From the NCBI RefSeq assembly GCF_024223415.1, contig NZ_CP100500.1: DNA of 64,000 bases; one strand, given 5' to 3'. The position numbers were made by a program, and so were the translations under genes. Below are positions 2,283-49,099 of this stretch, one piece after another (the first letter of the stretch is position 1; each line of letters begins with the position of its first letter). The notes below the pieces were generated by a model that was not told where the DNA came from, searched no databases, and was given only the letters and a program-made list of their open reading frames with translations. The stretch is from Escherichia coli (GTDB taxonomy: Bacteria; Pseudomonadota; Gammaproteobacteria; Enterobacterales; Enterobacteriaceae).

Positions 2283-2879
2283 ATGATTAAGGTGTATGGC
2301 GTACCCGGATGGGGCTCTACAATCAGTGAGCTGATGCTAACACTGGCTGATATTCCTTATCAGTTCGTTGATGTCAGTGGTTTTGACCACGAGGGAGCTT
2401 CACGCGAGTTATTGAAAACCCTGAACCCGTTGTGTCAGGTTCCGACACTGGCATTGGAAAATGACGAGATTATGACGGAGACAGCGGCGATTGCATTGAT
2501 GGTTCTCGATCGTCGCCCGGACCTTGCGCCACCGGTTGGGCGCGCCGAACGTCAGCAGTTTCAACGGCTATTGGTCTGGCTGGTTGCTAATGTCTATCCA
2601 ACATTCACTTTCGCCGATTACCCTGAGCGTTGGGCTCCTGACGCACCCGAACAGTTAAAGAAGAATGTTATTGAATATCGTAAATCGCTTTATATCTGGC
2701 TGAATTCACAATTGACCCCTGAACCTTATGCGTTTGGTGAGCAACTAACGCTGGTGGACTGTTATCTTTGCACTATGCGCACATGGGGCCTGGGCATGAA
2801 TGGTTTCAGGATAATGCCACGAATATCAGTGCGATTGCTGATGCTGTATGTCAGTTACCGAAATTACAAGAAGTATTAA
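2283..2879 (+). CDS. yncG: GST-like protein YncG; C-terminus apparently frameshifted (the +1 frame continues as ...GHEWFQDNATNISAIADAVCQLPKLQEVLKRNVII to a stop at 2898-2900)
   Basis: N-terminal GST fold motifs (MIKVYGVPGWGST..., CQVPTL); the in-frame tail ...RISVRLLMLYVSYRNYKKY is low-complexity whereas the +1 frame is protein-like; break maps to the CC run at 2789-2790. Confidence 0.7.
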   Translation: MIKVYGVPGWGSTISELMLTLADIPYQFVDVSGFDHEGASRELLKTLNPLCQVPTLALENDEIMTETAAIALMVLDRRPDLAPPVGRAERQQFQRLLVWLVANVYPTFTFADYPERWAPDAPEQLKKNVIEYRKSLYIWLNSQLTPEPYAFGEQLTLVDCYLCTMRTWGLGMNGFRIMPRISVRLLMLYVSYRNYKKY

Positions 2880-2974
2880 AAAGGAATGTCATTATTTGAG
2901 TGGGATACCAGAAGATTATGTTATTTATTATTCAGTAACTTTATCCACAATGATGGGCGTAATTAATTAGATTC

Positions 2975-3187
2975 ATGTTATGTTTTTTAATTTATATCAC
3001 TCTCCCTTTCATTCAGCTTGTCTATTTCATTTCCTCTGAAAAGAAACTAACTATTCACATTGTGAAGATGTTTCACTTGTTATCACAGGCATTCTATAAT
3101 CTCAAAATGTTTTTAATGATGGATATGCTCGGAGTTGGAGATACAATTAATATTAATACAAATAAAAATATCCGGCAGGTATGCTAA
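2975..3187 (+). CDS. yncH: Small hypothetical protein, 70 aa
   Basis: 70-aa ORF in the AT-rich region; matches my recollection of YncH (size and position after yncG); no function inferable. Confidence 0.55.
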   Translation: MLCFLIYITLPFIQLVYFISSEKKLTIHIVKMFHLLSQAFYNLKMFLMMDMLGVGDTININTNKNIRQVC

Positions 3188-4006
3188 AAGGATAAATGGC
3201 GTTCTCTGTATTTATTCGCAATTATCTGTAGGACAAATATGGAGAGCTTGATGAGTCAGAGCTAAAACAGCAATTGATTAATAAACATGTTGATTTATTC
3301 AAGAAAATGGATGTATTTTAAATATTGATTCTTAATATAACCTAATCAATAGATTATCACGTGAGAGCTGCACATTATTGGAGGGGCAGGGGAAAACACC
3401 ATTTTGGGAACAATGCATCAGGTACTCTTACCACTGAAGCAAGATCATCCGGGCACCAGGTGGTGGTGCAGTGCTTTGGAAATGGTCCCCTCGGGGGAGT
3501 TGTCATTATTTTCTATGCTATTTGCTTATGATATTCATCAGGTGAATTTAATAAATTCCTAATTTGAAATATCCACTATTAAGCCAGTGTTTAACGACGT
3601 TAAGATGGCAATGTGCAGATCATGTTATCAGGGTGGGGCGGTAGCGTATATTCCTTATACAAATCATCATTCATTTCAATGATTGTTATTAAATTATTTA
3701 TTGTTGTGAATAAAAAGACATTATGAATATTGGTTTAACTTTGCATATCAGGTTTTTTATTACTCGCTGTAATGTACGAGCCTGTCGTGAATAACGTCCA
3801 GAACCCATCCGTTGCGTTTGTGATTATTTTGTTGACTAAACAGACGCCCGTTTCTCTGAAGTAAAATCCCAGACTAAATCATCACATAACCATGACATTT
3901 TCTGATATTCCCCGGTAACGCCAGTTGTCGACTCACTTATTTCATCCGCCCGACATGTTGTACATGCAATATGTGCGGATTATTATTCATTTTCACGGAG
4001 GTTGCT

Positions 4007-6115
4007 ATGTCAACCGGATTACGTTTCACGCTGGAAGTGGACGGCCTGCCACCGGACGCGTTTGCGGTGGTCTCCTTTCATCTGAACCAGTCACTCTCTT
4101 CACTTTTTTCCCTCGACCTTTCTCTGGTCAGTCAGCAGTTTCTTTCCCTTGAATTTGCGCAGGTGCTGGACAAAATGGCCTACCTGACGGTATGGCAGGG
4201 CGATGACGTACAGCGCCGGGTGAAAGGTGTGGTGACCTGGTTTGAACTGGGGGAGAACGACAAAAACCAGATGCTGTACAGCATGAAGGTGTGCCCGCCG
4301 CTGTGGCGCACAGGGCTGCGCCAGAACTTCCGTATCTTCCAGAATGAGGACATCGAAAGCATCCTCGCTACGATATTGCAGGAAAACGGGGTGACCGAGT
4401 GGAGTCCGCTGTTCAGCGAGCCGCATCCTTCCCGTGAGTTTTGTGTCCAGTACGGCGAAACCGATTACGATTTCCTGTGCCGGATGGCGGCGGAGGAAGG
4501 CATCTTCTTTTATGAGGAGCACGCGCAAAAAAGTACCGACCAAAGCCTGGTCCTGTGCGATACCGTGCGTTATCTGCCGGAGTCCTTTGAGATCCCCTGG
4601 AATCCGAACACCCGTACCGAGGTAAGCACCCTCTGCATCAGCCAGTTTCGCTACAGCGCACAAATCCGCCCTTCTTCCGTGGTGACCAAAGACTACACCT
4701 TTAAACGCCCCGGCTGGGCCGGACGTTTTGACCAGGAAGGCCAGCACCAGGATTACCAGCGCACACAGTATGAAGTGTATGACTATCCCGGACGTTTCAA
4801 GGGCGCCCACGGGCAGAACTTTGCCCGCTGGCAGATGGACGGCTGGCGAAACAACGCAGAAGTGGCGCGCGGAACAAGCCGTTCGCCGGAGATATGGCCG
4901 GGACGGCGAATTGTGCTGACGGGGCATCCGCAGGCGAACCTGAACCGGGAATGGCAGGTGGTGGCAAGTGAACTGCACGGTGAGCAGCCGCAGGCGGTGC
5001 CGGGACGCAGTGGTTCAGGTACCTCGCTGAATAACCACTTTGCGGTAATCCCGGCAGACCGGACATGGCGGCCACAGCCGTTGCTGAAACCGCTGGTGGA
5101 CGGCCCGCAGAGCGCCGTCGTGACGGGACCGGCAGGCGAGGAAATCTTCTGTGATGAACATGGCCGCGTGCGGGTGAAATTTAACTGGGACCGCTATAAC
5201 CCGTCAAACCAGGACAGTTCATGCTGGATCCGTGTGGCACAGGCGTGGGCAGGCACCGGATTCGGTAACCTTGCGATACCGCGCGTGGGTCAGGAGGTGA
5301 TTGTGGACTTCCTCAACGGCGATCCGGACCAGCCGATCATTATGGGGCGCACCTACCACCAGGAAAACCGCACACCCGGCAGCCTGCCGGGAACAAAGAC
5401 GCAGATGACCATTCGTTCGAAAACCTATAAGGGCAGCGGGTTTAATGAACTGAAGTTTGACGATGCGACAGGGAAAGAACAGGTCTACATCCACGCGCAG
5501 AAGAACATGAACACCGAGGTGCTGAATAACCGCACCACGGATGTGATAAACAACCATGCTGAGACCATTGGCAACAATCAGATGATTGCGGTTACCAACA
5601 ATCAGATACAGACGGTGGGCGTTAACCAGATAGAGACGGTGGGCAGTAACCAGATCATTAACGTGGGTTCTGTTCAGGTGGAAACGATTGGACTTGTTCG
5701 TGCGCTGACCGTGGGCGTGGCGTACCAGACGACGGTAGGTGGCATTATGAACACTTCGGTGGCTCTGATGCAGTCCTCGCAGATCGGTTTGCATAAATCT
5801 TTGAGGGTCGGGCTGGGTTATGACGTCAAAGTCGGAAATAACGTTACCTTCACCGTTGGTAAAACGAAAAAGGATGATACCGGGCAGACCGCGATTTACT
5901 CCGCCGGTGAGCATCTGGAGCTCTGCTGTGGTAAGGCAAAGCTGGTGCTGACAAAGGACGGTCAAATTTTTCTCAACGGCACAAAAATTCATTTGCAGGG
6001 TAAGGAGCAGGTTAATGGTGACTCACTGTTGATTAACTGGAACTGTGCAGCCTCGAAATCCCCACCGAAGACCCCTGATGAAAAGCAGGATACGCCGGAT
6101 ATGAGAGAGTACTGA
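4007..6115 (+). CDS. vgrG: Type VI secretion spike protein VgrG, 702 aa
   Basis: ORF 3971..6115; start set at ATG 4007 (MSTGLRFTLEVDGLPPDAF...) with GGAGG RBS at 3997-4001; gp27/gp5-like core, C-terminal beta-helix octapeptide repeats (NNQMIAVT/NNQIQTVG/VNQIETVG). Confidence 0.9.
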   Translation: MSTGLRFTLEVDGLPPDAFAVVSFHLNQSLSSLFSLDLSLVSQQFLSLEFAQVLDKMAYLTVWQGDDVQRRVKGVVTWFELGENDKNQMLYSMKVCPPLWRTGLRQNFRIFQNEDIESILATILQENGVTEWSPLFSEPHPSREFCVQYGETDYDFLCRMAAEEGIFFYEEHAQKSTDQSLVLCDTVRYLPESFEIPWNPNTRTEVSTLCISQFRYSAQIRPSSVVTKDYTFKRPGWAGRFDQEGQHQDYQRTQYEVYDYPGRFKGAHGQNFARWQMDGWRNNAEVARGTSRSPEIWPGRRIVLTGHPQANLNREWQVVASELHGEQPQAVPGRSGSGTSLNNHFAVIPADRTWRPQPLLKPLVDGPQSAVVTGPAGEEIFCDEHGRVRVKFNWDRYNPSNQDSSCWIRVAQAWAGTGFGNLAIPRVGQEVIVDFLNGDPDQPIIMGRTYHQENRTPGSLPGTKTQMTIRSKTYKGSGFNELKFDDATGKEQVYIHAQKNMNTEVLNNRTTDVINNHAETIGNNQMIAVTNNQIQTVGVNQIETVGSNQIINVGSVQVETIGLVRALTVGVAYQTTVGGIMNTSVALMQSSQIGLHKSLRVGLGYDVKVGNNVTFTVGKTKKDDTGQTAIYSAGEHLELCCGKAKLVLTKDGQIFLNGTKIHLQGKEQVNGDSLLINWNCAASKSPPKTPDEKQDTPDMREY

Positions 6116-6181
6116 TCCCGTACCTGTTCGGTATTCAGTAACAAACAAGCATTAAAAATAAACAGAAGAAGGAATTGAATC

Positions 6182-9100
6182 ATGAGCGGAAAACCAGCGG
6201 CGCGTCAGGGAGATATGACTCAGTATGGCGGTCCCATTGTCCAGGGTTCGGCAGGTGTAAGAATTGGCGCGCCCACCGGCGTGGCGTGCTCGGTGTGTCC
6301 GGGCGGGATGACCTCGGGCAACCCGGTAAATCCGCTGCTGGGGGCGAAGGTGCTGCCCGGCGAGACGGACCTTGCGCTGCCCGGCCCGCTGCCGTTCATT
6401 CTCTCCCGCACCTACAGCAGCTACCGGACGAAGACGCCTGCGCCGGTGGGGATTTTTGGCCCCGGCTGGAAAGCGCCTTCTGATATCCGCTTACAGCTAC
6501 ATGATGACGGACTGATACTCAACGACAACGGCGGGCGGAGCATTCACTTTGAGCCGCTGCTGCCGGGGGAGGCGGTGTACAGCCGCAGCGAGTCAATGTG
6601 GCTGGTGCGCGGTGGTAAGGCAGCGCAGCCGGACGGCCACACGCTGGCGCGGCTGTGGGGGGCGCTGCCGCCGGATATCCGGTTAAGCCCGCATCTTTAC
6701 CTGGCGACCAACAGCGCACAGGGGCCGTGGTGGATACTGGGGTGGTCAGAGCGGGTGCCGGGTGCTGAGGACGTACTGCCAGCGCCGCTGCCGCCGTACC
6801 GGGTGCTTACCGGGCTGGCAGACCGTTTCGGGCGGACGCTGACGTACCGGCGTGAGGCCGCAGGCGACCTGGCCGGGGAAATCACCGGCGTGACGGACGG
6901 TGCCGGGCGTGAGTTCCGTCTGGTACTGACCACACAGGCACAGCGGGCGGAAGAGGCCCGCACCTCTTCGCTATCTTCTTCTGACAGTTCCCGCCCTCTC
7001 TCAGCCTCAGCGTTCCCCGACACACTGCCCGGTACCGAATACGGCCCCGACAGGGGTATCCGTCTTTCAGCGGTGTGGCTGATGCACGACCCGGCATACC
7101 CGGAGAATCTGCCCGGTGCGCCACTGGCGCGGTACACGTATACGGAAGCCGGTGAACTGCTGGCGGTATATGACCGCAGCAATACGCAGGTGCGCGCTTT
7201 CACGTATGACGCGCAGCACCCGGGCCGGATGGTGGCGCACCGTTACGCGGGAAGGCCGGAGATGCGCTACCGCTACGACGATACCGGGCGGGTGGTGGAG
7301 CAGCTGAACCCGGCAGGCCTGAGTTACCGCTACCAGTATGAGCAGGACCGCATCACCGTCACGGATAGCCTGAACCGGCGTGAGGTGCTGCATACAGAAG
7401 GCGGGGCCGGGCTGAAGCGGGTGGTGAAAAAAGAACTGGCGGACGGCAGCGTCACGCACAGCGGGTATGACGCGGCAGGAAGGCTCACGGCGCAGACGGA
7501 CGCGGCGGGACGGCGGACAGAGTACGGTCTGAATGTGGTGTCCGGCGATATCACGGACATCACCACACCGGACGGGCGGGAGACGAAATTTTACTATAAC
7601 GACGGGAACCAGCTGACGGCGGTGGTGTCCCCGGACGGGCTGGAGAGCCGCCGGGCATATGATGAACCGGGCAGGCTGGTATCGGAGACATCGCGCAGCG
7701 GGGAGACAGTACGCTACCGCTACGATGATGCGTACAGTGAGTTACCGGCGACGACAACAGATGCGACGGGCAGCACCCGGCAGATGACCTGGAGCCGCTA
7801 CGGTCAGTTGCTGGCGTTCACCGACTGCTCGGGCTACCAGACCCGCTATGAATACGACCGCTTCGGCCAGATGACGGCGGTCCACCGCGAGGAAGGCATC
7901 AGCCTTTACCGCCGCTATGACAACCGTGGCCGGTTAATCTCGGTGAAAGACGCACAGGGCCATGAAACGCGGTATGAGTACAACGCCGCAGGCGACCTGA
8001 CTGCCGTCATTACCCCGGACGGCAACCGGAGCGAGACACAGTACGATGCGTGGGGAAAGGCGGTCAGCACCACGCAGGGCGGGCTGACGCGCAGTATGGA
8101 GTACGATGCTGCCGGACGTGTCATCAGCCTGACCAACGAGAACGGCAGCCGGAGTGAGTTTACCTACGATGCGCTGGACCGCCTGGTACAGCAGGGCGGC
8201 TTTGACGGGCGGACGCAGCGTTACCGTTATGACCTGACCGGAAAACTCACGCAGAGTGAAGATGAGGGGCTTGTCATCCTCTGGTACTACGATGAATCGG
8301 ACCGTATCACTCACCGCACGGTGAACGGCGAACCGGCAGAGCAGTGGCAGTATGATGGCCACGGCTGGCTGAGAGAAATCAGCCACCTGAGCGAAGGCCA
8401 CCGTGTTGCCGTCCACTATGGCTATGACGATAAAGGCCGCCTGACCGGCGAACGCCAGACGGTGGAGAACCCGGAGACGGGGGAACTGCTGTGGCAGCAT
8501 GAGACGAAACACGCATACAACGAGCAGGGGCTGGCAAACCGCGTCACGCCGGACAGCCTGCCGCCGGTGGAGTGGCTGACGTATGGCAGCGGTTACCTGG
8601 CGGGAATGAAGCTGGGCGGGACGCCGCTGGTCGAGTATACGCGGGACAGGCTGCACCGGGAGACGGTGCGCAGCTTCGGCAATAATGCATATGAACTGAC
8701 CAGCACTTACACCCCCGCAGGCCAGTTACAGAGCCAGCACCTGAACAGCCTGGTGTATGACCGTGACTACGGGTGGAATGACAACGGCGACCTGGTGCGC
8801 ATCAGCGGTCCGCGACAGACGCGGGAATACGGCTACAGCGCCACGGGCAGGCTGGAGAGTGTGCGCACCCTCGCACCGGACCTGGACATCCGCATCCCGT
8901 ATGCCACGGACCCGGCGGGCAACCGGCTGCCGGACCCGGAGCTGCACCCGGACAGTACACTCACAGTGTGGCCGGATAACCGAATCACCGAAGACGCGCA
9001 CTACCTGTACCGTTACGATGAATACGGCAGGCTGACGGAGAAGACGGACCGCATCCCGACGGGTGTGATACGGACGGACGACGAGCGGACCCACCACTAC

Positions 9101-10387
9101 CACTACGACAGCCAGCACCGCCTGGTGTTCTACACGCGGATACAGCATGAGGAGCCACTGGTCGAGAGCCGCTACCTCTACGACCCGCTGGGACGGCGAA
9201 TGGCAAAACGGGTCTGGCGGCGGGAGCGTGACCTGACGGGGTGGATGTCGCTGTCGCGTAAACCGGAGGAGACATGGTACGGGTGGGACGGCGACAGGCT
9301 GACGACGGTGCAGACTGACACCACACGTATCCAGACGGTCTACCAGCCGGGGAGCTTCACGCCGCTCATCCGTATCGAGACAGAGAACGGCGAACGGGAG
9401 AAAATGCAGCGCCGCAGCCTGGCGGAGAAGCTGCAGCAGGAAGGAAGTGAGGACGGTCACGGTGTGGTGTTCCCGGCTGAGCTGGTGAGGATGCTGGACA
9501 GGCTGGAGGAAGAAATCCGGGCAAACTGCGTGAGCAGTGAAAGCCGCCAGTGGCTTGCGCAGTGCGGGCTGACGGTGGAGCGGCTGGCGGCACAGATAGA
9601 GCCGGTTTATTTGCCTGAGCGAAAAATACATCTTTATCACTGTGACCACCGGGGCCTGCCGCTGGCGCTTATCAGTGAAGACGGCAATACGGCGTGGCGC
9701 GGGGAGTATGATGAATGGGGCAACCAGCTTAATGAAGAGAACCCGTATTACCTGCACCAGCCATACCGTCTGCCGGGGCAGCAGCATGATGAGGAATCAG
9801 GGCTGTACTATAACCGGAACCGGTACTATGACCCGCTACAGGGGAGGTATATTACACAAGACCCCATTGGGCTGGAGGGGGGATGGAACCTGTACCAATA
9901 TCCGCTGAATCCAGTGCAACACGTTGATCCATTAGGGCTTAGTACTATGATAATAGGTAACGGCCCCGTTCCTGATAATCCTTTTGGGCATGCTGCGGCG
10001 GCAAATCGATATGGATTAATGAGTTCGGGAACTGGGGATGAGATGGGAGCCTCTGTCTCTGATTATTTTAAAAAGATGCAACCCCGCAGAGATACCTGGA
10101 TTTGGATAATAGATACAACAGATGAAGAAGAACAATGTATGATGAATAAGGCAATAGACCTTAATAAAAAACTAAAAACTATTAACCTCGGGCCTCTTCC
10201 TGTTTTAAATAATTGTTTTAGCCGAACGAACATGATTTTTGAGGCGTGCGGGTTTAACAACCCCTCTATGAATACAAATGCGCCTATAAGCCTACAAGTG
10301 CTCGGTGAGCTTTATGGATATCAAAGATATATTATGCCTAAAGGTCCTTTCACTGGATTCCCATTTGAATTTCAAGAGGTAAAGTAA
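6182..10387 (+). CDS. rhsE: Full-length Rhs polymorphic toxin, 1401 aa: PAAR-like N-terminus, YD-repeat shell, DPLGL boundary motif, variable C-terminal domain
   Basis: N-terminus [23 protein letters not shown]...; many YD repeats ([17 protein letters not shown], ...); conserved core end ...[26 protein letters not shown]...VDPLGL at 9923-9940; symbol assigned by locus position (between yncH and H-rpt/pptA). Confidence 0.9.
9941..10387 (+). other. Rhs C-terminal variable (toxin) domain, 148 aa, family not recognised
   Basis: Begins immediately after DPLGL; abrupt drop in GC content relative to the rhs core; contains His and Cys residues (GHAAA, EEQCMM, NNCFS, EACGF) but no motif I can assign. 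Confidence 0.6.
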
Positions 10388-10786
10388 ATGGAAATGCTTG
10401 GGAAGATATTAGTGATAATTATTTCCATGATAATTATATCTTGTGATTATTATAATGCTGGCATGGACTATCAAGATAATATAGCCCTCGAGCAAGTCGT
10501 AACATGGGATTCTGATAATATATTCACACCTAATATCTTTGAACATAATGGAAGATGTTTTATGAAGAAAAATGAAACATGGATGTTATTAAATGGAGAT
10601 GCAACACCAAACATTAGAACAATGAGCAATAAGAAAATAGAATGCCTGGAGAAGAGTGAAGTAGAATGGGCTAGTAGGGTTTGCGACAGTATCACAGACA
10701 AGGAAAGGGAAAATCTGAAGGCATTAATATGTAGCAAACCAGCTAAATCAGTTAATACAGGCAAAAGACCAGCGTTAGGATATTGA
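10388..10786 (+). CDS. Putative Rhs immunity protein, 132 aa, predicted inner-membrane lipoprotein
   Basis: ATG directly follows the rhs TAA stop (10385-10387); N-terminus MEMLGKILVIIISMIIIS-C19-D20 = signal peptide plus lipobox-like IISC with Asp at +2; AT-rich like the toxin tip. Confidence 0.6.
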   Translation: MEMLGKILVIIISMIIISCDYYNAGMDYQDNIALEQVVTWDSDNIFTPNIFEHNGRCFMKKNETWMLLNGDATPNIRTMSNKKIECLEKSEVEWASRVCDSITDKERENLKALICSKPAKSVNTGKRPALGY

Positions 10787-10937
10787 AACCGGCACTGCAC
10801 TCTATCACTATTACAATATTCTGAGTGACTAGAGCAACTGCTCCGCCATCCGGGCTAGCAGTATGACGACGAATCCGAACTGCACTACAACTGGCACCGG
10901 TACTACAATCCGGGACAGGGACCAGGGAAAGATCACG
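10787..10937 (+). pseudogene. Vestigial orphan rhs core 3' fragment with in-frame stops
   Basis: Translation ...LRHPG*QYDDESELHYNWHRYYNPGQG aligns with the core end ...[27 protein letters not shown] of the upstream rhs (similarity also visible at DNA level); TGA and TAG stops in frame; homology ends at the intron boundary. Confidence 0.5.
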
Positions 10938-11424
10938 GTGTGCCGTAGGCACAAAGATGCAAAACGGGACGTTTTGCATGTAATAAGCATAAGCTTGTGA
11001 AGAGATGGTGGCAGGCCCACCGGGATCTGCTGTCGGAAGTCGGTCCCAAACAACCCCGGCTGCTGTGGTAAAGAGCCAAGGTAGTGAGCGCAGGGGGAAC
11101 GATCAGACGAGATCTGATCCTGTGTGAGATACAGTGAGATGAGTAAACCCGAACCTGTGTTGAAACGTCGTTAGTCCTAAGTGACATCAAAACCGGAGGT
11201 TTCGTGATACCGCCTGGATTAATTTACGGGTGAATTCCGAATGCTGCGTAAATGGTGTCCGGCGTATAGCAGGCATGACGCTGTATCAGGCTCTTTGCAG
11301 GAACTACGGGAACCAGTCGTCGCAATGTCAAGAGAGAAATACAAATAACCGAAATTATGAGTATGAGAGTATCGATGTGCGAAACCGGGGCAGAGCTGTT
11401 CGTAGTAGTGAGGAAGCGTTTGTA

Positions 11425-12725
11425 ATGAATGTGGAGCGAAGGGGCAACGTCGGGCAGTCTGCATCACAGCCCAACTGTAAACAGGAGGAGGCTGCGGGTG
11501 AACAGACAAAACCGTTTCAGGTCAGTAAATTGCATGTGGTGGAAGCGTACCGTCGGGTAAAGGCGAATGCCGGAGCTGCCGGAGTGGATAACCAGACGCT
11601 GAAAGATTTTGAGCGGGATCTGAAAGGAAATCTGTACAAAATCTGGAACAGGTTATCGTCGGGAAGCTGGATGCCGCCGCCAGTGCGTGCGGTGGAAATT
11701 CCGAAGAAGGATGGCAGTAAAAGGCTTTTAGGAATACCGACAGTAAGCGATCGAATAGCGCAGATGACGGTGCTGGTAACGTTTGAACCATTAGTGGAGC
11801 GTTATTTCCTGAATGATTCATACGGATACCGGCATGGAAAATCAGCGCTGGATGCAATAGCAGTTACCAGAAAACGTTGCTGGCAATACGACTGGTGTCT
11901 TGAGTTTGATATTAAAGGGTTATTCGATAATATCCCCCACGATTTATTACTCAGGGCAGTGGATAAACATTGCGCGGATAAATGGGTAAGACTGTATATT
12001 CGCAGGTGGCTGACAGCGCCGGTGCAGATGCCGGATGGAACACTGAAGGAAAGAAATAAAGGTACGCCACAGGGTGGAGTCATCAGTCCGGTACTGGCGA
12101 ATTTATTTCTGCACTATGTGTTTGATAAATGGCTGTCGTTACATTATCCGGAAATTCCCTGGTGTCGTTATGCAGATGATGGATTAATTCATTGTGGCAG
12201 TAAACAACAGGCAGAGGAATTACTGAATAAACTGGCAAAACGTTTTCAGGAATGTGGACTGGAATTACATCCGGAGAAAACGAAAATAGTTTACTGCAAA
12301 GACAGCTAACGACAGGCGAACCACGAAACAGTGCAGTTTGATTTTCTGGGTTATACGTTCAGGGCGAGAAGAGCACGTAATCAGCGAAGTGGAAATCTCT
12401 TTACGAGTTTCAGTCCGGCGGTGAGTAACAGTGCGCAGAAAGGCATGATCGAAAAACTCAGGAAACTGCGGCTCAGACGCAGGGTGGAGATGAGTCTCGA
12501 AGATATTGCGAAAAGGCTGAATCCGATGATATCGGGGTGGCTGAATTATTACGCGAAATACCACAAAGATATATTAATCTGACGCTGATTGCGTGGGCGA
12601 GAAAGAAATATAAAACCCTGCGGTATAGAAAGACGAAGGCGTGTCAGCTAATGGAAAGGCTGTCAAAAGAGAAGCCGGAGTTGTTTGCCCACTGGAATGC
12701 AGGACCGGAAAGCGCGTTTGCCTGA
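11425..12725 (+). pseudogene. Group II intron reverse transcriptase/maturase (IEP), disrupted by an in-frame TAA and a frameshift
   Basis: RT motifs (AGAAGVDNQTL..., GTPQGGVISPVLANLFL, RYADDGLI = YADD box) and X/maturase motifs (FDFLGYTF, ISGWLNYY); TAA at 12307-12309 interrupts the frame; C-terminal segment (12537..12725) is in a different frame; start could alternatively be the upstream ATG at 11230. Confidence 0.75.
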
Positions 12726-12728
12726 CGG

Positions 12729-12762
12729 GAGCCGTATGAAGCGAGAGTTTCACGTACGGTTC
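12729..12762 (+). ncRNA. Group II intron domain V (catalytic hairpin)
   Basis: gagccgtatgaagcgagagtttcacgtacggttc: 10-bp lower stem with AGC triad at positions 2-4, 2-nt bulge on the 3' strand, 4-bp upper stem, GNRA (GAGA) tetraloop; 4 nt after the IEP stop. Confidence 0.7.
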
Positions 12763-12945
12763 TGCGAGAGGCTGTCGGGGAGGTTCCGGTGGCCTACTCA
12801 CTTAACGCTGCTTTTTTGTACTAAATAATTCGCATTTTATGTTTAAAAATTGAGATATTCCCCATTACCTAAAGCTGTTTTTTATTGCTTATACATGATC
12901 AAATACTCCTTACATAATTAAGGAGAACAAAATGGAATTAAAAAA

Positions 12946-14067
12946 TTGATGGAACATATTTCTGTTATCCCCGATTACAGACAAGCCTGGAAAGTGGAAC
13001 ATAAATTATCGGATATTCTACTGTTGACTATTTGTGCCGTTATTTCTGGTGCAGAAGGTTGGGAAGATATAGAGGATTTTGGGGAAACACATCTCGATTT
13101 TTTGAAGCAATATGGTGATTTTGAAAATGGTATTCCTGTTCACGATACCATTGCCAGAGTTGTATCCTGTATCAGTCCTGCAAAATTTCACGAGTGCTTT
13201 ATTAACTGGATGCGTGACTGCCATTCTTCAGATGATAAAGACGTCATTGCAATTGATGGAATAACGCTCCGGCACTCTTATGATAAGAGTCGTCGCAGGG
13301 GAGCGATTCATGTCATTAGTGCGTTCTCAACAATGCACAGTCTGGTCCTCGGACAGATCAGGACGGATGAGAAATCTAATGAGATTACAGCTATTCCTGA
13401 ACTTCTTAACATGATGGATATTAAAGGAAAAATCATCACAACTGATGCGATGGGTTGCCAGAAAGATATTGCAGAAAAGATACAAAAACAGGGAGGGGAT
13501 TATTTATTCGCTGTAAAGGGAAATCAGGGGCGACTAAATAAAGCCTTTGAGGAAAAATTCCCGCTGAAAGAATTAAATAATCCAGAGCATGACAGTTACG
13601 CAATCAGTGAAAAGAGTCACGGCAGAGAAGAAATCCGTCTTCATATTGTTTACGATGTCCCTGATGAACTTATTGATTTCACGTTTGAATGGAAAGGGCT
13701 GAAGAAATTATGCGTGGCAGTCTCCTTTCGGTCCATAATAGCAGAACAAAAGAAAGAGCCAAAAATGACGGTCAGATATTATATCAGTTCTGCTGATTTA
13801 ACCGCAGAGAAGTTCGCCACAGCAATCCGAAACCACTGGCACGTGGAGAATAAGCTGCACTGGCGTCTGGACGTGGTAATGAATGAAGACGACTGCAAAA
13901 TAAGAAGAGGAAATGCAGCAGAATTATTTTCAGGGATACGGCACATTGCTATTAATATTTTGACGAATGATAAGGTATTCAAGGCAGGGTTAAGACGTAA
14001 GATGCGAAAAGCAGCCATGGACAGAAACTATCTGGCGTCAGTCCTTGCGGGGAGCGGGCTTTCGTAA
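12946..14067 (+). CDS. ydcC: H-repeat-associated protein (ISAs1-family transposase), Rhs-linked
   Basis: ORF 12946..14067 (373 aa as called from a TTG; next codon is ATG) with DDE-type transposase sequence; an upstream ATG at 12932 with AGGAG RBS (12921-12925) is out of frame because of a 6-A run at 12940-12945. Confidence 0.85.
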
Positions 14068-18636: not shown

Positions 18637-20180
18637 TATTCGCCCTCCGCTTTGTCGCGCACTTCGGTGATGTTGATGGCATCGATACGGCTACTGTTGA
18701 ACAGGTTGAATTTACTGTCCGAACCGTGGCAACCGTCGCCAAAGGTAAAACCGCAGCCGTTGCGTTCTGCGAAGGCATCGCCCGCCATTTCCCGATGGCT
18801 GGTCGGGATAACAAAACGATCTTCATAGTTGGCAATGGCGAGATAGCGATACATTTCTTCGACCTGGGCGACGCTCAGGCCTACTTCGTCGATGGCACGA
18901 GTATCAGTAACGCCTTCCACGGTTTGTGAACGCATATAGTGGCGCATCGCCATCATCCGTTTCAGCGCCCGCAGTACCGGACCAGTATCACCGGCACTCA
19001 ACATATTGGCGAGATATTGCACTGGAATACGCAGGCTTTCGATGGCGGGGAGCACGCCTTCGCTTTTCGGCAAACCGCCCGCATCAGCGTAAGACTGAAT
19101 CGGTGACAGCGGAGGAACGTACCAGACCATCGGCAGGGTGCGGTATTCAGGGTGCAACGGTAGCGCCAGTTTCCAGTCCATCGCCATTTTGTAGACAGGC
19201 GAACGCTGGGCAGCGTCAATCACATTTTGTGGAATACCTTGTTTCAGGGCTTCCTCGATCACTGAGGGATCGTGCGGATCGAGGAACACTTCGCACTGGC
19301 GTTCATAGAGGTCAACCTCGCGCTCGGTGCTTGCCGCTTCCTCAATGCGGTCGGCGTCGTAAAGCAGCACGCCCAGATACCGGATGCGACCCACGCAGGT
19401 TTCTGAGCAAACGGTCGGTTGACCGGACTCAATTCGTGGGTAACAGAAGATACATTTTTCTGACTTGCCGCTTTTCCAGTTGAAGTAGATTTTTTTGTAC
19501 GGACAACCGCTAATGCACAAACGCCAGCCACGGCATTTATCCTGATCAATCAGCACAATGCCGTCTTCTTCGCGTTTGTAGATAGCGCCGCTTGGGCAGG
19601 TCGCCACGCAGCTGGGATTGAGGCAGTGTTCGCACAGGCGCGGCAGGTACATCATGAAGGTGTTTTCAAACTGCCCGTACATCTCCTTTTGCATGGCCTC
19701 GAAGTTGCGGTCGCGGGCACGTTTTTCAAACTCGCCGCCCAGCAGTTCTTCCCAGTTTGGCCCCCAGATCACTTTGTCCATCCGCTTACCGTCAATCAGC
19801 GAACGCGGGCGAGCAGTAGGGATATGTTTGCCTTCCGGTGCGCTATGCAAATGTTCGTAGTCGAAGGTGAAAGGTTCGTAGTAATCATCAATCTGCGGCA
19901 CCACCGGGTTGGCGAAGATTTTGGTTATTACGCCCATCTTACTGCCCAGACGCGGGCGTATCTTGCCATTCACATCGCGGACCCAGCCGCCTTGCCACTC
20001 TTCCTGATCTTCCCAGTTTTTCGGATAACCAATGCCCGGTTTGGTTTCGACGTTGTTAAACCATGCGTACTCCATGCCTTCGCGTCCGGTCCAGACGTTT
20101 TTACAGGTCACCGAACAGGTATGGCAGCCGATACATTTATCGAGATTAAGCACCATGCCGACTTGCGAACGGATTATCAT
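18636..20180 (-). CDS. narY: Nitrate reductase 2 beta subunit (Fe-S), 514 aa
   Basis: Four Cys clusters (CIGCHTCSVTC, CEHCLNPSC, ...); overlaps narZ by 4 nt. Confidence 0.95.
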   Translation of the reverse strand: MIIRSQVGMVLNLDKCIGCHTCSVTCKNVWTGREGMEYAWFNNVETKPGIGYPKNWEDQEEWQGGWVRDVNGKIRPRLGSKMGVITKIFANPVVPQIDDYYEPFTFDYEHLHSAPEGKHIPTARPRSLIDGKRMDKVIWGPNWEELLGGEFEKRARDRNFEAMQKEMYGQFENTFMMYLPRLCEHCLNPSCVATCPSGAIYKREEDGIVLIDQDKCRGWRLCISGCPYKKIYFNWKSGKSEKCIFCYPRIESGQPTVCSETCVGRIRYLGVLLYDADRIEEAASTEREVDLYERQCEVFLDPHDPSVIEEALKQGIPQNVIDAAQRSPVYKMAMDWKLALPLHPEYRTLPMVWYVPPLSPIQSYADAGGLPKSEGVLPAIESLRIPVQYLANMLSAGDTGPVLRALKRMMAMRHYMRSQTVEGVTDTRAIDEVGLSVAQVEEMYRYLAIANYEDRFVIPTSHREMAGDAFAERNGCGFTFGDGCHGSDSKFNLFNSSRIDAINITEVRDKAEGE

Positions 20181-30926: not shown

Positions 30927-33900
30927 ATGGACGTCAGTCGCAGACAATTTTTTAAAATCTGCGCGGGCGGTATGGCTGGAACAACAGTAGCGGCATTGGG
31001 CTTTGCCCCGAAGCAAGCACTGGCTCAGGCGCGAAACTACAAATTATTACGCGCTAAAGAGATCCGTAACACCTGCACATACTGTTCCGTAGGTTGCGGG
31101 CTATTGATGTATAGCCTGGGTGATGGCGCAAAAAACGCCAGAGAAGCGATTTATCACATTGAAGGTGACCCGGATCATCCGGTAAGCCGTGGTGCGCTGT
31201 GCCCCAAAGGGGCCGGTTTGCTGGATTACGTCAACAGTGAAAACCGTCTGCGCTACCCGGAATATCGTGCGCCAGGTTCTGACAAATGGCAGCGCATTAG
31301 CTGGGAAGAAGCATTCTCCCGTATTGCGAAGCTGATGAAAGCTGACCGTGACGCTAACTTTATTGAAAAGAACGAGCAGGGTGTAACGGTAAACCGTTGG
31401 CTTTCTACCGGTATGCTGTGTGCCTCCGGTGCCAGCAACGAAACCGGGATGCTGACCCAGAAATTTGCCCGCTCCCTCGGGATGCTGGCGGTAGACAACC
31501 AGGCGCGCGTCTGACACGGACCAACGGTAGCAAGTCTTGCTCCAACATTTGGTCGCGGTGCGATGACCAACCACTGGGTGGATATCAAAAACGCTAACGT
31601 AGTGATGGTGATGGGCGGTAACGCTGCTGAAGCGCATCCCGTCGGTTTCCGCTGGGCGATGGAAGCGAAAGACAACAACGATGCAACCTTGATCGTTGTC
31701 GATCCCCGTTTTACGCGTACCGCTTCTGTGGCGGATATTTACGCACCTATTCGTTCCGGTACGGACATTACGTTCCTGTCTGGCGTTTTGCGCTACCTGA
31801 TCGAAAACAACAAAATCAACGCCGAATACGTTAAGCATTACACCAACGCCAGCCTGCTGGTGCGTGATGATTTTGCTTTCGAAGACGGTCTGTTCAGCGG
31901 CTACGACGCTGAAAAACGCCAGTACGATAAGTCGTCCTGGAACTATCAGTTCGATGAAAACGGCTATGCAAAACGCGATGAAACACTGACTCATCCGCGC
32001 TGTGTGTGGAACCTGCTGAAAGAGCACGTTTCCCGCTACACGCCGGACGTCGTTGAAAACATCTGCGGTACGCCAAAAGCCGACTTCCTGAAAGTGTGTG
32101 AAGTGCTGGCCTCCACCAGCGCACCGGATCGCACAACCACCTTCCTGTACGCGCTGGGCTGGACGCAGCACACCGTGGGTGCGCAGAACATCCGTACTAT
32201 GGCGATGATCCAGTTGCTACTCGGTAACATGGGTATGGCCGGTGGCGGCGTGAACGCATTGCGTGGTCACTCCAACATTCAGGGGCTGACTGACTTAGGC
32301 CTGCTCTCTACCAGCCTGCCAGGTTATCTGACGCTGCCGTCAGAAAAACAGGTTGATTTGCAGTCGTATCTGGAAGCGAACACGCCGAAAGCGACGCTGG
32401 CTGGTCAGGTGAACTACTGGAGCAACTATCCGAAGTTCTTCGTTAGCCTGATGAAATCTTTCTATGGCGATGCCGCGCAGAAAGAGAACAACTGGGGCTA
32501 TGACTGGCTGCCGAAGTGGGACCAGACCTACGACGTCATCAAGTATTTCAACATGATGGATGAAGGCAAAGTCACCGGTTATTTCTGCCAGGGCTTTAAC
32601 CCGGTTGCGTCCTTCCCGGACAAAAACAAAGTGGTGAGCTGCCTGAGCAAGCTGAAGTATATGGTGGTTATCGATCCGCTGGTGACTGAAACCTCTACCT
32701 TCTGGCAGAACCACGGCGAGTCGAACGATGTCGATCCGGCGTCTATTCAGACTGAAGTATTCCGTCTGCCTTCGACCTGCTTTGCTGAAGAAGATGGTTC
32801 TATCGCTAACTCCGGTCGCTGGTTGCAGTGGCACTGGAAAGGTCAGGACGCGCCGGGTGAAGCGCGTAACGACGGCGAAATTCTGGCGGGTATCTACCAT
32901 CATCTGCGCGAGTTGTACCAGGCCGAAGGTGGTAAAGGCGTAGAACCGCTGATGAAGATGAGCTGGAACTACAAGCAGCCGCACGAACCGCAATCTGACG
33001 AAGTAGCTAAAGAGAACAACGGCTATGCGCTGGAAGATCTCTATGATGCTAATGGCGTGCTGATTGCGAAGAAAGGTCAGTTGCTGAGTAGCTTTGCGCA
33101 TCTGCGTGATGACGGTACAACCGCATCTTCTTGCTGGATCTACACCGGTAGCTGGACAGAGCAGGGCAACCAGATGGCTAACCGCGATAACTCCGACCCG
33201 TCCGGTCTGGGGAATACGCTGGGATGGGCCTGGGCGTGGCCGCTCAACCGTCGCGTGCTGTACAACCGTGCTTCGGCGGATATCAACGGTAAACCGTGGG
33301 ATCCGAAACGGATGCTGATCCAGTGGAACGGCAGCAAGTGGACGGGTAACGATATTCCGGACTTCGGCAATGCCGCACCGGGTACGCCAACCGGGCCGTT
33401 TATCATGCAGCCGGAAGGGATGGGACGCCTGTTTGCCATCAACAAAATGGCGGAAGGTCCGTTCCCGGAACACTACGAGCCGATTGAAACGCCGCTGGGC
33501 ACTAACCCGCTGCATCCGAACGTGGTGTCTAACCCGGTTGTTCGTCTGTATGAACAAGACGCACTGCGGATGGGTAAAAAAGAGCAGTTCCCGTATGTGG
33601 GTACGACCTATCGTCTGACCGAGCACTTCCACACCTGGACCAAGCACGCATTGCTCAATGCAATTGCTCAGCCGGAACAGTTTGTGGAAATCAGCGAAAC
33701 GCTGGCGGCGGCGAAAGGCATTAATAATGGCGATCGTGTCACTGTCTCAAGCAAGCGTGGCTTTATCCGCGCGGTGGCTGTGGTAACGCGTCGTCTGAAA
33801 CCGCTGAATGTAAATGGTCAGCAGGTTGAAACGGTGGGTATTCCAATCCACTGGGGCTTTGAGGGTGTCGCGCGTAAAGGTTATATCGCTAACACTCTGA

Positions 33901-33974
33901 CGCCGAATGTCGGTGATGCAAACTCGCAAACGCCGGAATATAAAGCGTTCTTAGTCAACATCGAGAAGGCGTAA
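30927..33974 (+). CDS. fdnG: Formate dehydrogenase-N alpha subunit, selenocysteine-containing (UGA at 31512-31514 decoded as Sec), 1015 aa
   Basis: Tat signal MDVSRRQFFKICAGGMAGTTVAA; the two ORF-track pieces (30927..31514 and 31563..33974) are in the same frame, separated only by the in-frame TGA. Confidence 0.95.
31512..31555 (+). promoter_or_regulatory. Selenocysteine recoding site: UGA plus downstream SECIS-like structured region
   Basis: In-frame TGA inside an otherwise continuous conserved ORF; GC-rich region immediately 3' (exact SECIS fold not computed). Confidence 0.55.
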
Positions 33975-46675: not shown

Positions 46676-49075
46676 TCAGATTTTCAGCGGTAACACGCTG
46701 CTCATCCAGCCTGGAATTTCTTCGGCGGGTAGGGGGCGGGAAAAGAAATATCCCTGAATAACGCGACAGTGGATCTTGCGTAGCATCTCAAATTGCTCTT
46801 TGGTTTCGACGCCTTCCGCCACGACGGTTAAATTGAGGCTTTGCCCAATGCTGGTAATGGCTTCAAGTAAGGCAAGGATGCGTTTTTCCGTCAGACAACG
46901 ATCGACAAAACTTTTGTCAATTTTGATTTCCGTTACCGGAAGACTGACTAAGCGGGATAATCCGGAAAAGCCCGTGCCAAAATCATCTACCGATAAACCC
47001 ACGCCCATATCACGCAGGATCTGAATGCGCTTAAAGATTTCGGTATCGTGTTCCATCATCATGCTTTCTGTGATTTCCACCGTCAGCTGGTGGCCGTCAA
47101 TACCCCAGGCTTGCATTGCATCAGACACCTGATTAGGCAGCTGATTACTGCGAAAGTGCAGCGCCGACAAGTTCACGGATAACGCCGGGATATGAATATT
47201 CTGGCTACGCCATTCTGCTAACTGACGGCAAGCTTCCGCGATGACCCAGCGCCCAATATTTTCGATTTCACCAATCTCTTCTGCGAGAGGAATAAACCGT
47301 GAAGGGGGCACATGACCATGCAGGGGATCGTGCCAGCGAGCAAGGGCTTCGATGCCGTAGAGTTCACCCGTTTCTGCGAAGATTTGCGGCTGGTAAACCA
47401 GTTTCAGTTGGTTATTGCTAATCGCCTCTTTCAGCGCTGCGCCTAAAACCAAACGCTCTTTTACCATTTCGTTCATCGCCGGGCTGAAGAACTGCCAGCC
47501 GTTACCGCCATTCTTGCGAATATAATCCATTGCATTGTGAGCAGTGGAGAGCAGGTAATCGCGGTTTTTACCCACGTCGTAGCTGATGCCAATACTCAAG
47601 GTAAGCGGGAAGGGTTTATCGTCAATCATTATCGGCTTGCTGACCACATTCCGTAGCTCATCGGCGATCTGGGTAATGTTACTGACGTCGTTTTCCAGGC
47701 TCACGAGGACAAACTGCGTACCTTCGATACGACAGAGATACTGATCCGGTTTGAGTTTTTCACGAAAGCGATTGACCACTTCCAGCAATGCCTGATCGGC
47801 CCACGCATAGCCAAGGCTATCAATCACATCCTGAATATGGTCAACACCGATGAGATACACCACCGGAGAGACGGCTTTGTCGACCAGGTCATCGAGGTAA
47901 TTGTGCAGGTTATTGCGATTTGGCAGACCGGTCATCGGATCAAATTGGATGAGTTGTTCAATATGCTGACGGCTTTTTTCCTGTTCCAGCGCCAGCGCGG
48001 CCATATGCTGGCTGATATCTGCCACGCGTTCGATAAAGGCGCTGGTTTCTGCTCCTGACGAGGTTTTAATTTGCAGGATCCCCGCAGGCGCGCCATCACG
48101 CTGACGAATGGTCGCTGACCAGCTTTGCGCATTTTGAACTTCTGCACCGTGGGAAGATGACGCCCAGTGTATCGGCATCCCGTTGCGCAGTGCGAACAGC
48201 GAAACATGCGATTCGTTGAGAACAGATTCGATGTTACGACAAATGATTTCCCCCATTTCATGAAATGGCGGGCTGCTGCACATGGCGGCGAGAATATTGC
48301 CTTCAAGCTGGCGGATCTGCCGTTCTTCGGTGATATCCGAGAAGGTCATTACCAGGTTCTGCAGATGCGCGAGCACGTCATAAACCGGGCTGATAGAGGC
48401 TTTAATCCAGATTTTTTCACCGGTGCGCGTCAACAGCAGAAATTCGTCCTGATCGCGGGCGGTTTTCCATAGCAACTGTTGTAAACGAATGCGGTTATCG
48501 GCAGGGAATTCAGGAATGTTCAGGAGTGTATCGGGCTGCATACCGCTGGCTTCGCTAATGCAGTAACCAAACATTTCGGTAAATGCGCGATTGCACTGCA
48601 CAATATGGCGTTCCGGATCGAGGACAATCACCGGTCGGCCGAGATGGTCAACGGCAATAATCAATTGTCTGGTCTGTTCTTTTTGCGCCATTTCTACGCT
48701 GGCATCCCGTACCAGCGCCAGGTAATAAACTTTCCCCTCGGCGCTCACTTTCGATAGCGCAAAACGGGTCCAGATTTTACTGCCGTCTTTTTTCTCCAGC
48801 TGCAGCTCCCGACTCATCCCCTCGACGCGCGCTTTACCGCCTTCACGGTTGTGACGAATGTATTCAGGATGCGCAGGACGCAAATCCCGCGGAATCAGCA
48901 TATCAATGTTATTGCCAATGACTTCTTCACGTTTGTATCCCCAGAGCTTCTCTGCGGCGGGGTTGAAAAACATCACTTCATCATTTTCGTTAATTAACAC
49001 CGCACCCATCATATTTTGCTCAAGGGCGGGGAAAAAAATGCCATCGGCGGCATTATCCGCATCGGTTAGCTTCAT
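46676..49075 (-). CDS. dosP: Oxygen-sensing c-di-GMP phosphodiesterase (PAS-GGDEF-EAL), 799 aa
   Basis: Start refined to ATG 49073-49075 (MKLTDADNAADGIFFPA...); EAL motif and degenerate GGDEF domain. Confidence 0.93.
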   Translation of the reverse strand: MKLTDADNAADGIFFPALEQNMMGAVLINENDEVMFFNPAAEKLWGYKREEVIGNNIDMLIPRDLRPAHPEYIRHNREGGKARVEGMSRELQLEKKDGSKIWTRFALSKVSAEGKVYYLALVRDASVEMAQKEQTRQLIIAVDHLGRPVIVLDPERHIVQCNRAFTEMFGYCISEASGMQPDTLLNIPEFPADNRIRLQQLLWKTARDQDEFLLLTRTGEKIWIKASISPVYDVLAHLQNLVMTFSDITEERQIRQLEGNILAAMCSSPPFHEMGEIICRNIESVLNESHVSLFALRNGMPIHWASSSHGAEVQNAQSWSATIRQRDGAPAGILQIKTSSGAETSAFIERVADISQHMAALALEQEKSRQHIEQLIQFDPMTGLPNRNNLHNYLDDLVDKAVSPVVYLIGVDHIQDVIDSLGYAWADQALLEVVNRFREKLKPDQYLCRIEGTQFVLVSLENDVSNITQIADELRNVVSKPIMIDDKPFPLTLSIGISYDVGKNRDYLLSTAHNAMDYIRKNGGNGWQFFSPAMNEMVKERLVLGAALKEAISNNQLKLVYQPQIFAETGELYGIEALARWHDPLHGHVPPSRFIPLAEEIGEIENIGRWVIAEACRQLAEWRSQNIHIPALSVNLSALHFRSNQLPNQVSDAMQAWGIDGHQLTVEITESMMMEHDTEIFKRIQILRDMGVGLSVDDFGTGFSGLSRLVSLPVTEIKIDKSFVDRCLTEKRILALLEAITSIGQSLNLTVVAEGVETKEQFEMLRKIHCRVIQGYFFSRPLPAEEIPGWMSSVLPLKI

Positions 49076-49099
49076 GATTACCTCTGCATCCTGGCGCAT

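Follow-up and report, generated by a model that had tools for sequence, protein, structure and literature searches.

An intact vgrG–rhsE island of Escherichia coli as a predicted auxiliary effector module of the aspV-type type VI secretion system

A 64,000-nucleotide (64 kb) stretch of Escherichia coli DNA (contig NZ_CP100500.1 of assembly GCF_024223415.1), referred to as a whole as the window, carries at positions 4007–10786 a set of three adjoining genes that is the intact E. coli vgrG–rhsE island, an ordinary arrangement that is already known in the literature. The set consists of vgrG (4007..6115, plus strand), encoding a 702-aa type VI secretion system (T6SS) spike protein, of rhs (6182..10387, plus strand), which begins 66 bp after vgrG and encodes a 1401-aa, full-length RHS element core protein with a C-terminal toxin, and of a putative immunity gene (10388..10786, plus strand; 132 aa), the ATG of which follows directly after the TAA of rhs. 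By comparison with related and published systems, the island would very probably be an auxiliary effector module serving the T6SS that carries Rhs and is encoded next to aspV (T6SS2). The original prediction, which was made from the letters of the sequence, had described a 702-aa VgrG, a 66-bp spacer, a 1401-aa Rhs and an immunity open reading frame (ORF) abutting the rhs stop, and all of these coordinates and lengths hold, with the ATG of the last gene at 10388 standing next to the TAA.

The vgrG–rhsE island and its Rhs protein

The gene labels used here were assigned by the Prokaryotic Genome Annotation Pipeline (PGAP) and taken from the near-identical genome of E. coli O78 strain 3 (NZ_CP084096.1), which is collinear with the window over all 64 kb at 99.8–99.96% identity. 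By its architecture, with full-length gp27-like, OB-fold and gp5 beta-helix domains, the first protein is a VgrG/TssI spike protein: the family model TIGR03361 is matched over positions 1–512 of 513 with 629 bits (cutoff 186), Pfam finds Phage_GPD, Phage_base_V and Gp5_trimer_C, and a C-terminal tail of about 80 aa has no family match. The ATG at 4007 is preceded by GGAGG and was also picked by PGAP in the near-identical genome; a longer ORF would start at 3971. The Rhs protein was matched by NF041261 (RHS_core) over positions 1–1261 of 1261 with 2744 bits (cutoff 2000), and YD repeats (TIGR01643) and the Rhs_assc_core (TIGR03696, aa 1176–1253) were found within it. Because the matches to TIGR03361 and NF041261 are full length, the two ORFs are not there by chance, and neither protein is truncated against the curated profiles, in keeping with the intact pair that had been proposed. 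The GC content of vgrG and the rhs core is 55–68% and that of the toxin tip and immunity gene 37–41%, a drop that gives the classic composite pattern of Rhs elements.

At the matching site of K-12 MG1655 lies the rhsE pseudogene. K-12 keeps the DNA upstream of vgrG up to the position corresponding to 3939 of the window and then resumes near rhs codon 730, and is thus without window positions 3940–8389, i.e., vgrG and about 730 rhs codons that make up the 5′ half of the gene. The statement that K-12 rhsE is a truncated pseudogene is therefore confirmed, by synteny and by the deletion junction. To regard the window as the ancestral intact state, as had also been suggested, is reasonable because the upstream DNA is still there in K-12 while vgrG is gone together with the 5′ half of rhs. 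As a caveat, the flanking DNA is common to both, and so is the rhs core in its 3′ half (90% amino-acid identity in the core), but the K-12 toxin tip and its immunity gene ydcD are a different allele from those of the window. Of 5426 complete E. coli genomes, 2929 (including O157 genomes) covered at least 80% of a query running from yncH into vgrG, so the intact arrangement is the majority state in the species, and K-12-type genomes cover the first 48% of this query only. In O157 genomes the VgrG adjoining yncH is 98% identical. The same kind of vgrG–rhs–small immunity ORF arrangement is found in the vgrG2–rhsE island (z2257–z2261) of E. coli O157:H7 EDL933, where rhsE was described downstream of its own vgrG, with a putative immunity protein that has a lipoprotein signal (PMC7216683). 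The locus in itself thus matters little, being a common, annotated vgrG–rhsE island of which the K-12 pseudogene is a deletion derivative.

The first 47 aa of Rhs (6182..6322, plus strand) contain one PAAR repeat (aa 2–29), which is followed by ACSVCPGG. When compared with PAAR proteins of known structure, aa 2–29 aligned solely to the last (third) repeat (4jiv_D, 9rce_c and 8gra_J, E about 0.008), and the Pfam PAAR_motif scores for this region (E = 0.14 and 1.4) are not significant. A canonical three-repeat PAAR domain (PF05488) was rejected by both the Pfam scores and the PDB alignments. The "PAAR-like N-terminus" that had been claimed is thus to be understood as the one repeat at aa 2–29, without a full PAAR domain; judged by these alignments, "PAAR-like" is an accurate label in the sense in which it is used for Tse5-NT. 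The N-terminus amounts to one third of a normal PAAR cone followed by a CxxC motif (ACSVCPGG), and the Rhs encoded in the aspV cluster is built on the same plan. By analogy, the 47 aa are presumed to be the piece that docks on VgrG, and with one third of a cone the loading might need three Rhs per spike, or a further partner, even where a T6SS is available.

Directly behind this piece lie the sequence PVNPLLGAK (aa 48–56) and the DUF6531 N-terminal plug (aa 46–123, E = 2.6e-18), together at 6323..6550 on the plus strand. Rhs aa 48–140 align to residues 1–90 of the Tse5 shell chain 8cp6_B (E = 7e-13). This chain starts with PVNPMLGSK, the product of cleavage at K47|P48, and the window counterpart PVNPLLGAK is, on this comparison, the predicted N-terminal autocleavage site. 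At the other end of the shell, DPLGL (9926..9940, plus strand; aa 1249–1253) closes the Rhs-associated core. The motif is present where it had been reported, and is predicted to be the aspartyl autoproteolysis site that would free the toxin, a mechanism taken from published work on Rhs proteins (PMC10684867).

Among characterized effectors, Tse5 (RhsP1, PA2684) of Pseudomonas aeruginosa offers the closest comparison in these features. It consists of a 5-kDa PAAR-like N-terminal fragment, a shell and a toxin, is secreted with VgrG1c/VgrG4, and its N-terminal fragment has no membrane-binding module (PMC10684867). Both proteins have a 47-aa PAAR-like N-terminus, the sequence PVNP(L/M)LG(A/S)K, a DUF6531 plug, a YD shell, an aspartyl-protease C-terminal cut (predicted for the window Rhs) and a toxin of about 15 kDa. 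The likeness has its bounds: similarity is detectable for aa 48–140 only, the host and the T6SS subtype differ, and the Tse5 toxin is an inner-membrane pore-former, whereas that of the window is a predicted cysteine hydrolase. Like the window rhs, the gene for Tse5 directly follows a vgrG, and Tse5 does without an Eag chaperone.

This bears on the adaptor, the absence of which had been remarked on in the original prediction. It is correct that there is none in the 64 kb, and this is no anomaly for this class of Rhs. Eag chaperones work with effectors of the prePAAR type that have transmembrane helices. No transmembrane segment was found in the first 300 aa of the window Rhs (maximum Kyte–Doolittle 19-residue score 0.87), and a missing Eag/Tap adaptor is to be expected because this Rhs has neither a prePAAR nor a transmembrane N-terminus. 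With no N-terminal transmembrane helices and no adjacent DUF1795 gene, it falls outside the Eag (DUF1795)-chaperoned prePAAR effectors. The Rhs of the aspV T6SS cluster in NZ_CP084096.1, with an N-terminus 83% identical to that of the window Rhs, also has the adaptor-less vgrG–rhs layout. The vgrGO1–eagR–rhs islands of E. coli and the RhsA proteins of Enterobacter, Photorhabdus and P. protegens are likewise vgrG-linked Rhs systems in which the tip is polymorphic and an immunity gene lies beside it. The EagR/DUF1795-dependent effectors, however, combine a prePAAR motif and transmembrane helices with a full PAAR domain, and they require an Eag gene between vgrG and rhs, whereas the window Rhs has no transmembrane segment and no full PAAR domain, and just the 66-bp gap separates its gene from vgrG.

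The toxin tip and its putative immunity protein

The 148 aa that follow DPLGL (9941..10384, plus strand) form the toxin tip. Searches of NCBIfam and of PDB sequences with these 148 aa gave no match, and Pfam gave nothing usable; its single match (OCRE, E = 0.017) was treated as chance, and a Pfam search up to E = 10 did not place the toxin in any named family. Relatives are plentiful: a hidden Markov model scan of 1.84 billion representative proteins found 353 of them (representative clusters) at E ≤ 1e-3. The matches listed include 153 domain matches, in 95 of which the toxin domain ended at most 30 residues from the C-terminus, and all six of the long relatives that were checked are Rhs/YD-repeat proteins. 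The residues that are invariant across 25 diverse members include one histidine (H17 in toxin numbering, His1270 of Rhs; 9989–9991) and a cysteine (C92, Cys1345 of Rhs; 10214–10216), which are the candidate catalytic residues. A profile made from the 25 members found nothing meaningful among PDB sequences, nor did a single-sequence search, and in sequence the window toxin does not match TseH or YiiX significantly. When the 25 relatives were themselves searched against Pfam, Lnb_N (formerly DUF4105) was matched in two to three of them (best E = 4.3e-5) and PPPDE in one to two.

Comparison of the modelled fold was more informative. The best matches of the toxin model were YiiX (2if6, score 10.5), the T6SS effector TseH (6v98, 10.1, with 129 residues aligned), a YiiX-like cysteine peptidase of B. 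cereus (3kw0, 9.2) and the MARTX RID acyltransferase (5xn7, 7.7), followed by PPPDE, vasohibins and PLAAT4; an earlier, weaker model gave the identical top four. The model has a papain-like fold in which the candidate catalytic histidine precedes the cysteine and the cysteine sits at the N-terminus of a helix, and within the NlpC/P60 superfamily it places the tip in the permuted branch, with His before Cys.

The gene product encoded next to the tip has the lipobox IISC (IIS-C19) with an aspartate at position +2, and the lipobox cysteine and four further cysteines are invariant among its homologues. In E. coli, Asp at +2 is the classical signal for retention in the inner membrane. The immunity protein, for which no family match was found, is therefore predicted from these features to be a periplasm-facing, disulfide-bonded lipoprotein of the inner membrane. 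A homologue of the toxin and a homologue of the immunity protein both came from Salmonella records whose longest contig is 93,527 bp. The DNA of the two genes co-occurs in 542 E. coli genomes, in some of which the pair stands in differently annotated Rhs contexts, e.g., under rhsD in one. The pair thus has the features of an effector and its immunity protein, as far as they can be read from sequence: the gene is small and directly downstream, it covaries with the toxin, and its product is predicted in the compartment of the toxin.

Because the permuted NlpC/P60 fold is here combined with a candidate immunity protein that is a periplasmic lipoprotein, the toxin is predicted to be an envelope-targeting cysteine hydrolase, which most likely acts on lipids. 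Tox-Act1 and TseH were described as periplasm-acting phospholipases, with DUF4105/Lnb as a sister group of Tox-Act1 (PMC12994826, 2026). The TseH of Vibrio cholerae and the Tox-Act1 of Salmonella are small stand-alone effectors, whereas the window domain forms the end of an Rhs, and since Rhs proteins are usually fused to toxins that act in the cytoplasm (PMC12994826), the tip is somewhat atypical. Filing the pair as Tox-Act1/Imm-Act1 was considered and not adopted, Imm-Act1 being a protein with two transmembrane helices.

Alternatively, the tip may be a peptidoglycan amidase or endopeptidase, as was first proposed for TseH and as holds for canonical NlpC/P60 effectors. The superfamily fold and the match to TseH, which was originally annotated as a cysteine hydrolase or peptidase, fit such an activity, one or two of the toxin relatives match the PPPDE peptidase family, and a periplasmic immunity protein is compatible with either target. 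We nevertheless regard a peptidoglycan target as unlikely: the His-before-Cys order is the permuted arrangement, the top fold matches (YiiX, the YiiX-like protein of B. cereus, MARTX RID and PLAAT4) and the Lnb_N hits among the relatives are acyl- or lipid-directed enzymes, and phospholipase activity has been reported for Tox-Act1 and TseH (PMC12994826). The tip belongs to a large family of C-terminal domains of Rhs proteins that carries no name (the 353 representative clusters). What its predicted permuted NlpC/P60 fold and the predicted lipoprotein as immunity partner would add is an Rhs-delivered, envelope-targeting toxin, whereas the usual Rhs tips are cytoplasmic nucleases or protein modifiers.

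The aspV-type secretion system and the deliverability of the module

That neither T6SS machinery nor an adaptor gene is encoded in the 64 kb is borne out by the PGAP annotation: no Hcp, TssA–M, DUF1795 or DUF4123 gene is annotated in the matching 64-kb stretch of NZ_CP084096.1. About 1.45 Mb away from the island, the same genome carries a T6SS cluster that adjoins tRNA-Asp (aspV) and is complete for tssA–M, hcp, vgrG and rhs, with tssB, C, E, F, G, J and K, an icmH/dotU-type gene, tssM, tssA, tssH, tagH, vasI and vasL, and, in addition, two hcp genes, a vgrG, an RHS core gene and a gene for a TPR protein. The VgrG of this cluster is 90% identical end to end to that of the window, with most of the differences near the C-terminus. 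In the literature this Rhs-bearing system goes by the name of T6SS2, the clusters of which carry Rhs, and killing by the E. coli Rhs-CT3 needs ClpV2 (PMC6730261). Because of this cognate cluster in a relative and of the literature on T6SS2, service by a distant T6SS is the default reading.

The state of this machinery is a separate matter. For the strain of the window, the presence and condition of the T6SS are inferred from its relatives, the closest of which is 99.8% identical. The tssG genes of O78 strain 3 and SCU-316 have an identical 23-bp deletion that truncates the last ~35 of 360 residues (32380–33439 of stretch L007 from NZ_CP084096.1 and 18978–20037 of stretch L008 from SCU-316, both outside the window); vasL is frameshifted in both clusters, and the tssG of O157 is intact. 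The deletion occurs in just 5 of the 2112 genomes that have this tssG region, namely O78 strain 3, KV7, SCU-316, GPEC1446 and NCTC10444, which make up five of the six genomes nearest to the window (99.4–99.8%). Since five of the six closest genomes carry so rare a deletion, delivery in this lineage is doubtful. Further lesions lie in tssM, which has an internal stop in O78 strain 3 (19986–23420 of L007) and a frameshift in O157:H7 F8797 (2521–6013 of stretch L009); from these, the aspV-type T6SS seems to be decaying independently in several lineages. The T6SS of the window strain is thus probably present but damaged, and the module is probably nearer to "stranded but intact". The original prediction had offered a distant T6SS or a stranded cassette as alternatives; the answer is partly both, with a cognate T6SS about 1.45 Mb off in the relatives and a tssG lesion that is specific to the lineage.

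By analogy with the systems discussed above, the module would work as follows. VgrG would trimerise to form the spike, and the 47-aa Rhs N-terminus with its single PAAR repeat would dock on the tip of it; no Eag chaperone would be needed, since no transmembrane region has to be shielded. The shell of YD repeats would enclose the 148-aa toxin, which a cut at DPLGL would free from the shell, and the N-terminal piece would probably be cut off at N47|P48. After firing, the toxin would act from the periplasmic side of the neighbouring cell, where its His1270/Cys1345 pair would most likely cleave acyl chains from membrane lipids, like its fold relatives Tox-Act1 and TseH, and the adjacent inner-membrane lipoprotein would protect sibling cells. 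The firing machinery would be encoded elsewhere (in the closest genomes at the distance given above, where tssG has the deletion and vasL is frameshifted), and in this lineage the module would probably be intact but poorly or not deliverable at present. K-12 rhsE derives from the intact arrangement by deletion.

It is possible, if the less probable outcome, that the module is fully active, i.e., that a working T6SS elsewhere in the genome fires VgrG–Rhs and confers a competitive advantage today. All three ORFs are intact and relatives hold the cognate cluster, and the tssG deletion costs just the last ~35 of 360 residues; moreover, NCTC9112 is outside the five deletion genomes, and the undeleted form is found in 2107 of the 2112 genomes with the tssG region. 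These points are set against the deletion in five of the six closest genomes, the vasL frameshift in both of the clusters examined and the tssM stop in O78 strain 3, and E. coli T6SS clusters of this type were reported as repressed in vitro (PMC13141884).

The distribution of the two loci raises the opposite idea, that the island has a role independent of any T6SS: it might be kept for immunity alone, shielding the cell from neighbours that fire this toxin, it might act as a reservoir of rhs tips for recombination, or Rhs might be released by another route. The tssF–tssB region of the aspV-type T6SS had some match in 2293 genomes and at least 80% coverage in 2120, and comparison of 2929 with 2293 leaves at least 636 genomes with vgrG adjoining yncH but no tssF–tssB detectable by megablast. 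In a lineage whose tssG is damaged the ORFs are still intact, the remnant of an orphan rhs tail is found downstream, and the toxin/immunity pair recurs in other Rhs contexts, all of which would fit such a role. On the other hand, immunity alone would not need an intact 6.3-kb vgrG–rhs, the lesion may be too recent for decay to have followed (the relatives differ from the window by only 0.2–0.6%), and genomes without this type of T6SS might hold another type. We know of no T6SS-independent export route for this class of Rhs, and consider such a role highly improbable. Scarcely better are the prospects of the narrower claim that selection keeps the island intact where its cognate T6SS is broken or absent, as in the five tssG-deletion relatives and the at least 636 genomes, which we hold to be very unlikely; if it were true, a T6SS-independent use of this Rhs class would be implied.

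An auxiliary effector module of the aspV-type T6SS, deliverable poorly or not at all in this lineage, is thus the interpretation that we favor, and several points weigh against it. No VgrG trimer is known to be capped by just one PAAR repeat. The substrate of the toxin is deduced from the fold alone, at 6–15% identity to the structural matches, and no sequence profile ties the window toxin itself to a named family. As to the damage, NCTC9112, which is one of the six closest genomes, is without the deletion allele, and a TssG that lacks its last ~35 residues might still work. The closest relatives, with an intact effector island and a damaged baseplate gene in the same genome, offer a natural case in which the rate of decay of orphaned T6SS cargo could be followed.

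Downstream remnants and genomic setting

The gene order of the window is ansP–yncG–yncH–[vgrG–rhs–immunity gene–ltrA pseudogene–ydcC]–pptA–yddH–nhoA–...–narZ–...–fdnGHI–...–ddp–dosCP–gadBC–...–ydeM. The spacer between yncH and vgrG (3188..4006, plus strand) is non-coding and AT-rich, with about 35–37% GC, and is the part kept in K-12 up to 3939. The promoter of the island presumably lies in it. A promoter/terminator scan upstream of vgrG found 4 sites, with 4.5 expected in shuffled sequence, and because this count is no higher than in shuffled sequence no promoter was assigned there; Rfam found no RNA element in the spacer. The PADLOC defence models matched none of VgrG, Rhs, the toxin and the immunity protein, and a known anti-phage system was rejected on this ground.

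Behind the immunity gene lies an orphan remnant of an rhs core tail (QYDDESELHYNWHRYYNPGQG; 10846..10925, plus strand) of about 25 codons, recognized by comparing its translation with the tail of the main rhs core. A decayed group II intron (10926..12810, limits approximate, plus strand) is inserted in this remnant. Rfam matched group-II-D1D4-2 at 11007–11122 (93.9 bits) and Intron_gpII, domains D5/D6, at 12727–12802 (62.8 bits). The ltrA frame of the intron is broken: TIGR04416 is matched over positions 3–256 of 353 only, and in the near-identical genome PGAP labels the gene "frameshifted; internal stop". It appears that the intron homed into the orphan rhs fragment at the conserved stretch that codes for YYDP..GRY. 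The right end of the Rhs element is formed by ydcC (12946..14067, plus strand), a transposase of the ISAs1 family (H-repeat; NF033564, 409 bits) that is homologous to ydcC of K-12.

Some observations were made farther along the window. The fdnG gene (30927–33974) appears as two ORFs (30927–31514 and 31563–33974) separated by an in-frame TGA, which we take to be the expected selenocysteine codon of formate dehydrogenase-N and hence no sign of a pseudogene. An intact 807-aa ORF at 46676–49099 corresponds to dosP, which is labelled frameshifted in the 99.96%-identical stretch of NZ_CP084096.1, and yncG, also labelled frameshifted there, is an uninterrupted 198-aa ORF (2283–2879) in the window; either indel errors in the NZ_CP084096.1 assembly or true differences between the strains would account for both. 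On the minus strand, at about 25700–29560 between narU and yddG, lie leucine-rich-repeat genes resembling EspR1, an effector of the type III secretion system, and an ompC-like porin gene, and here the limits of the ORFs at 26220–26984 and 27026–28291 differ from the annotation of the closest genome.

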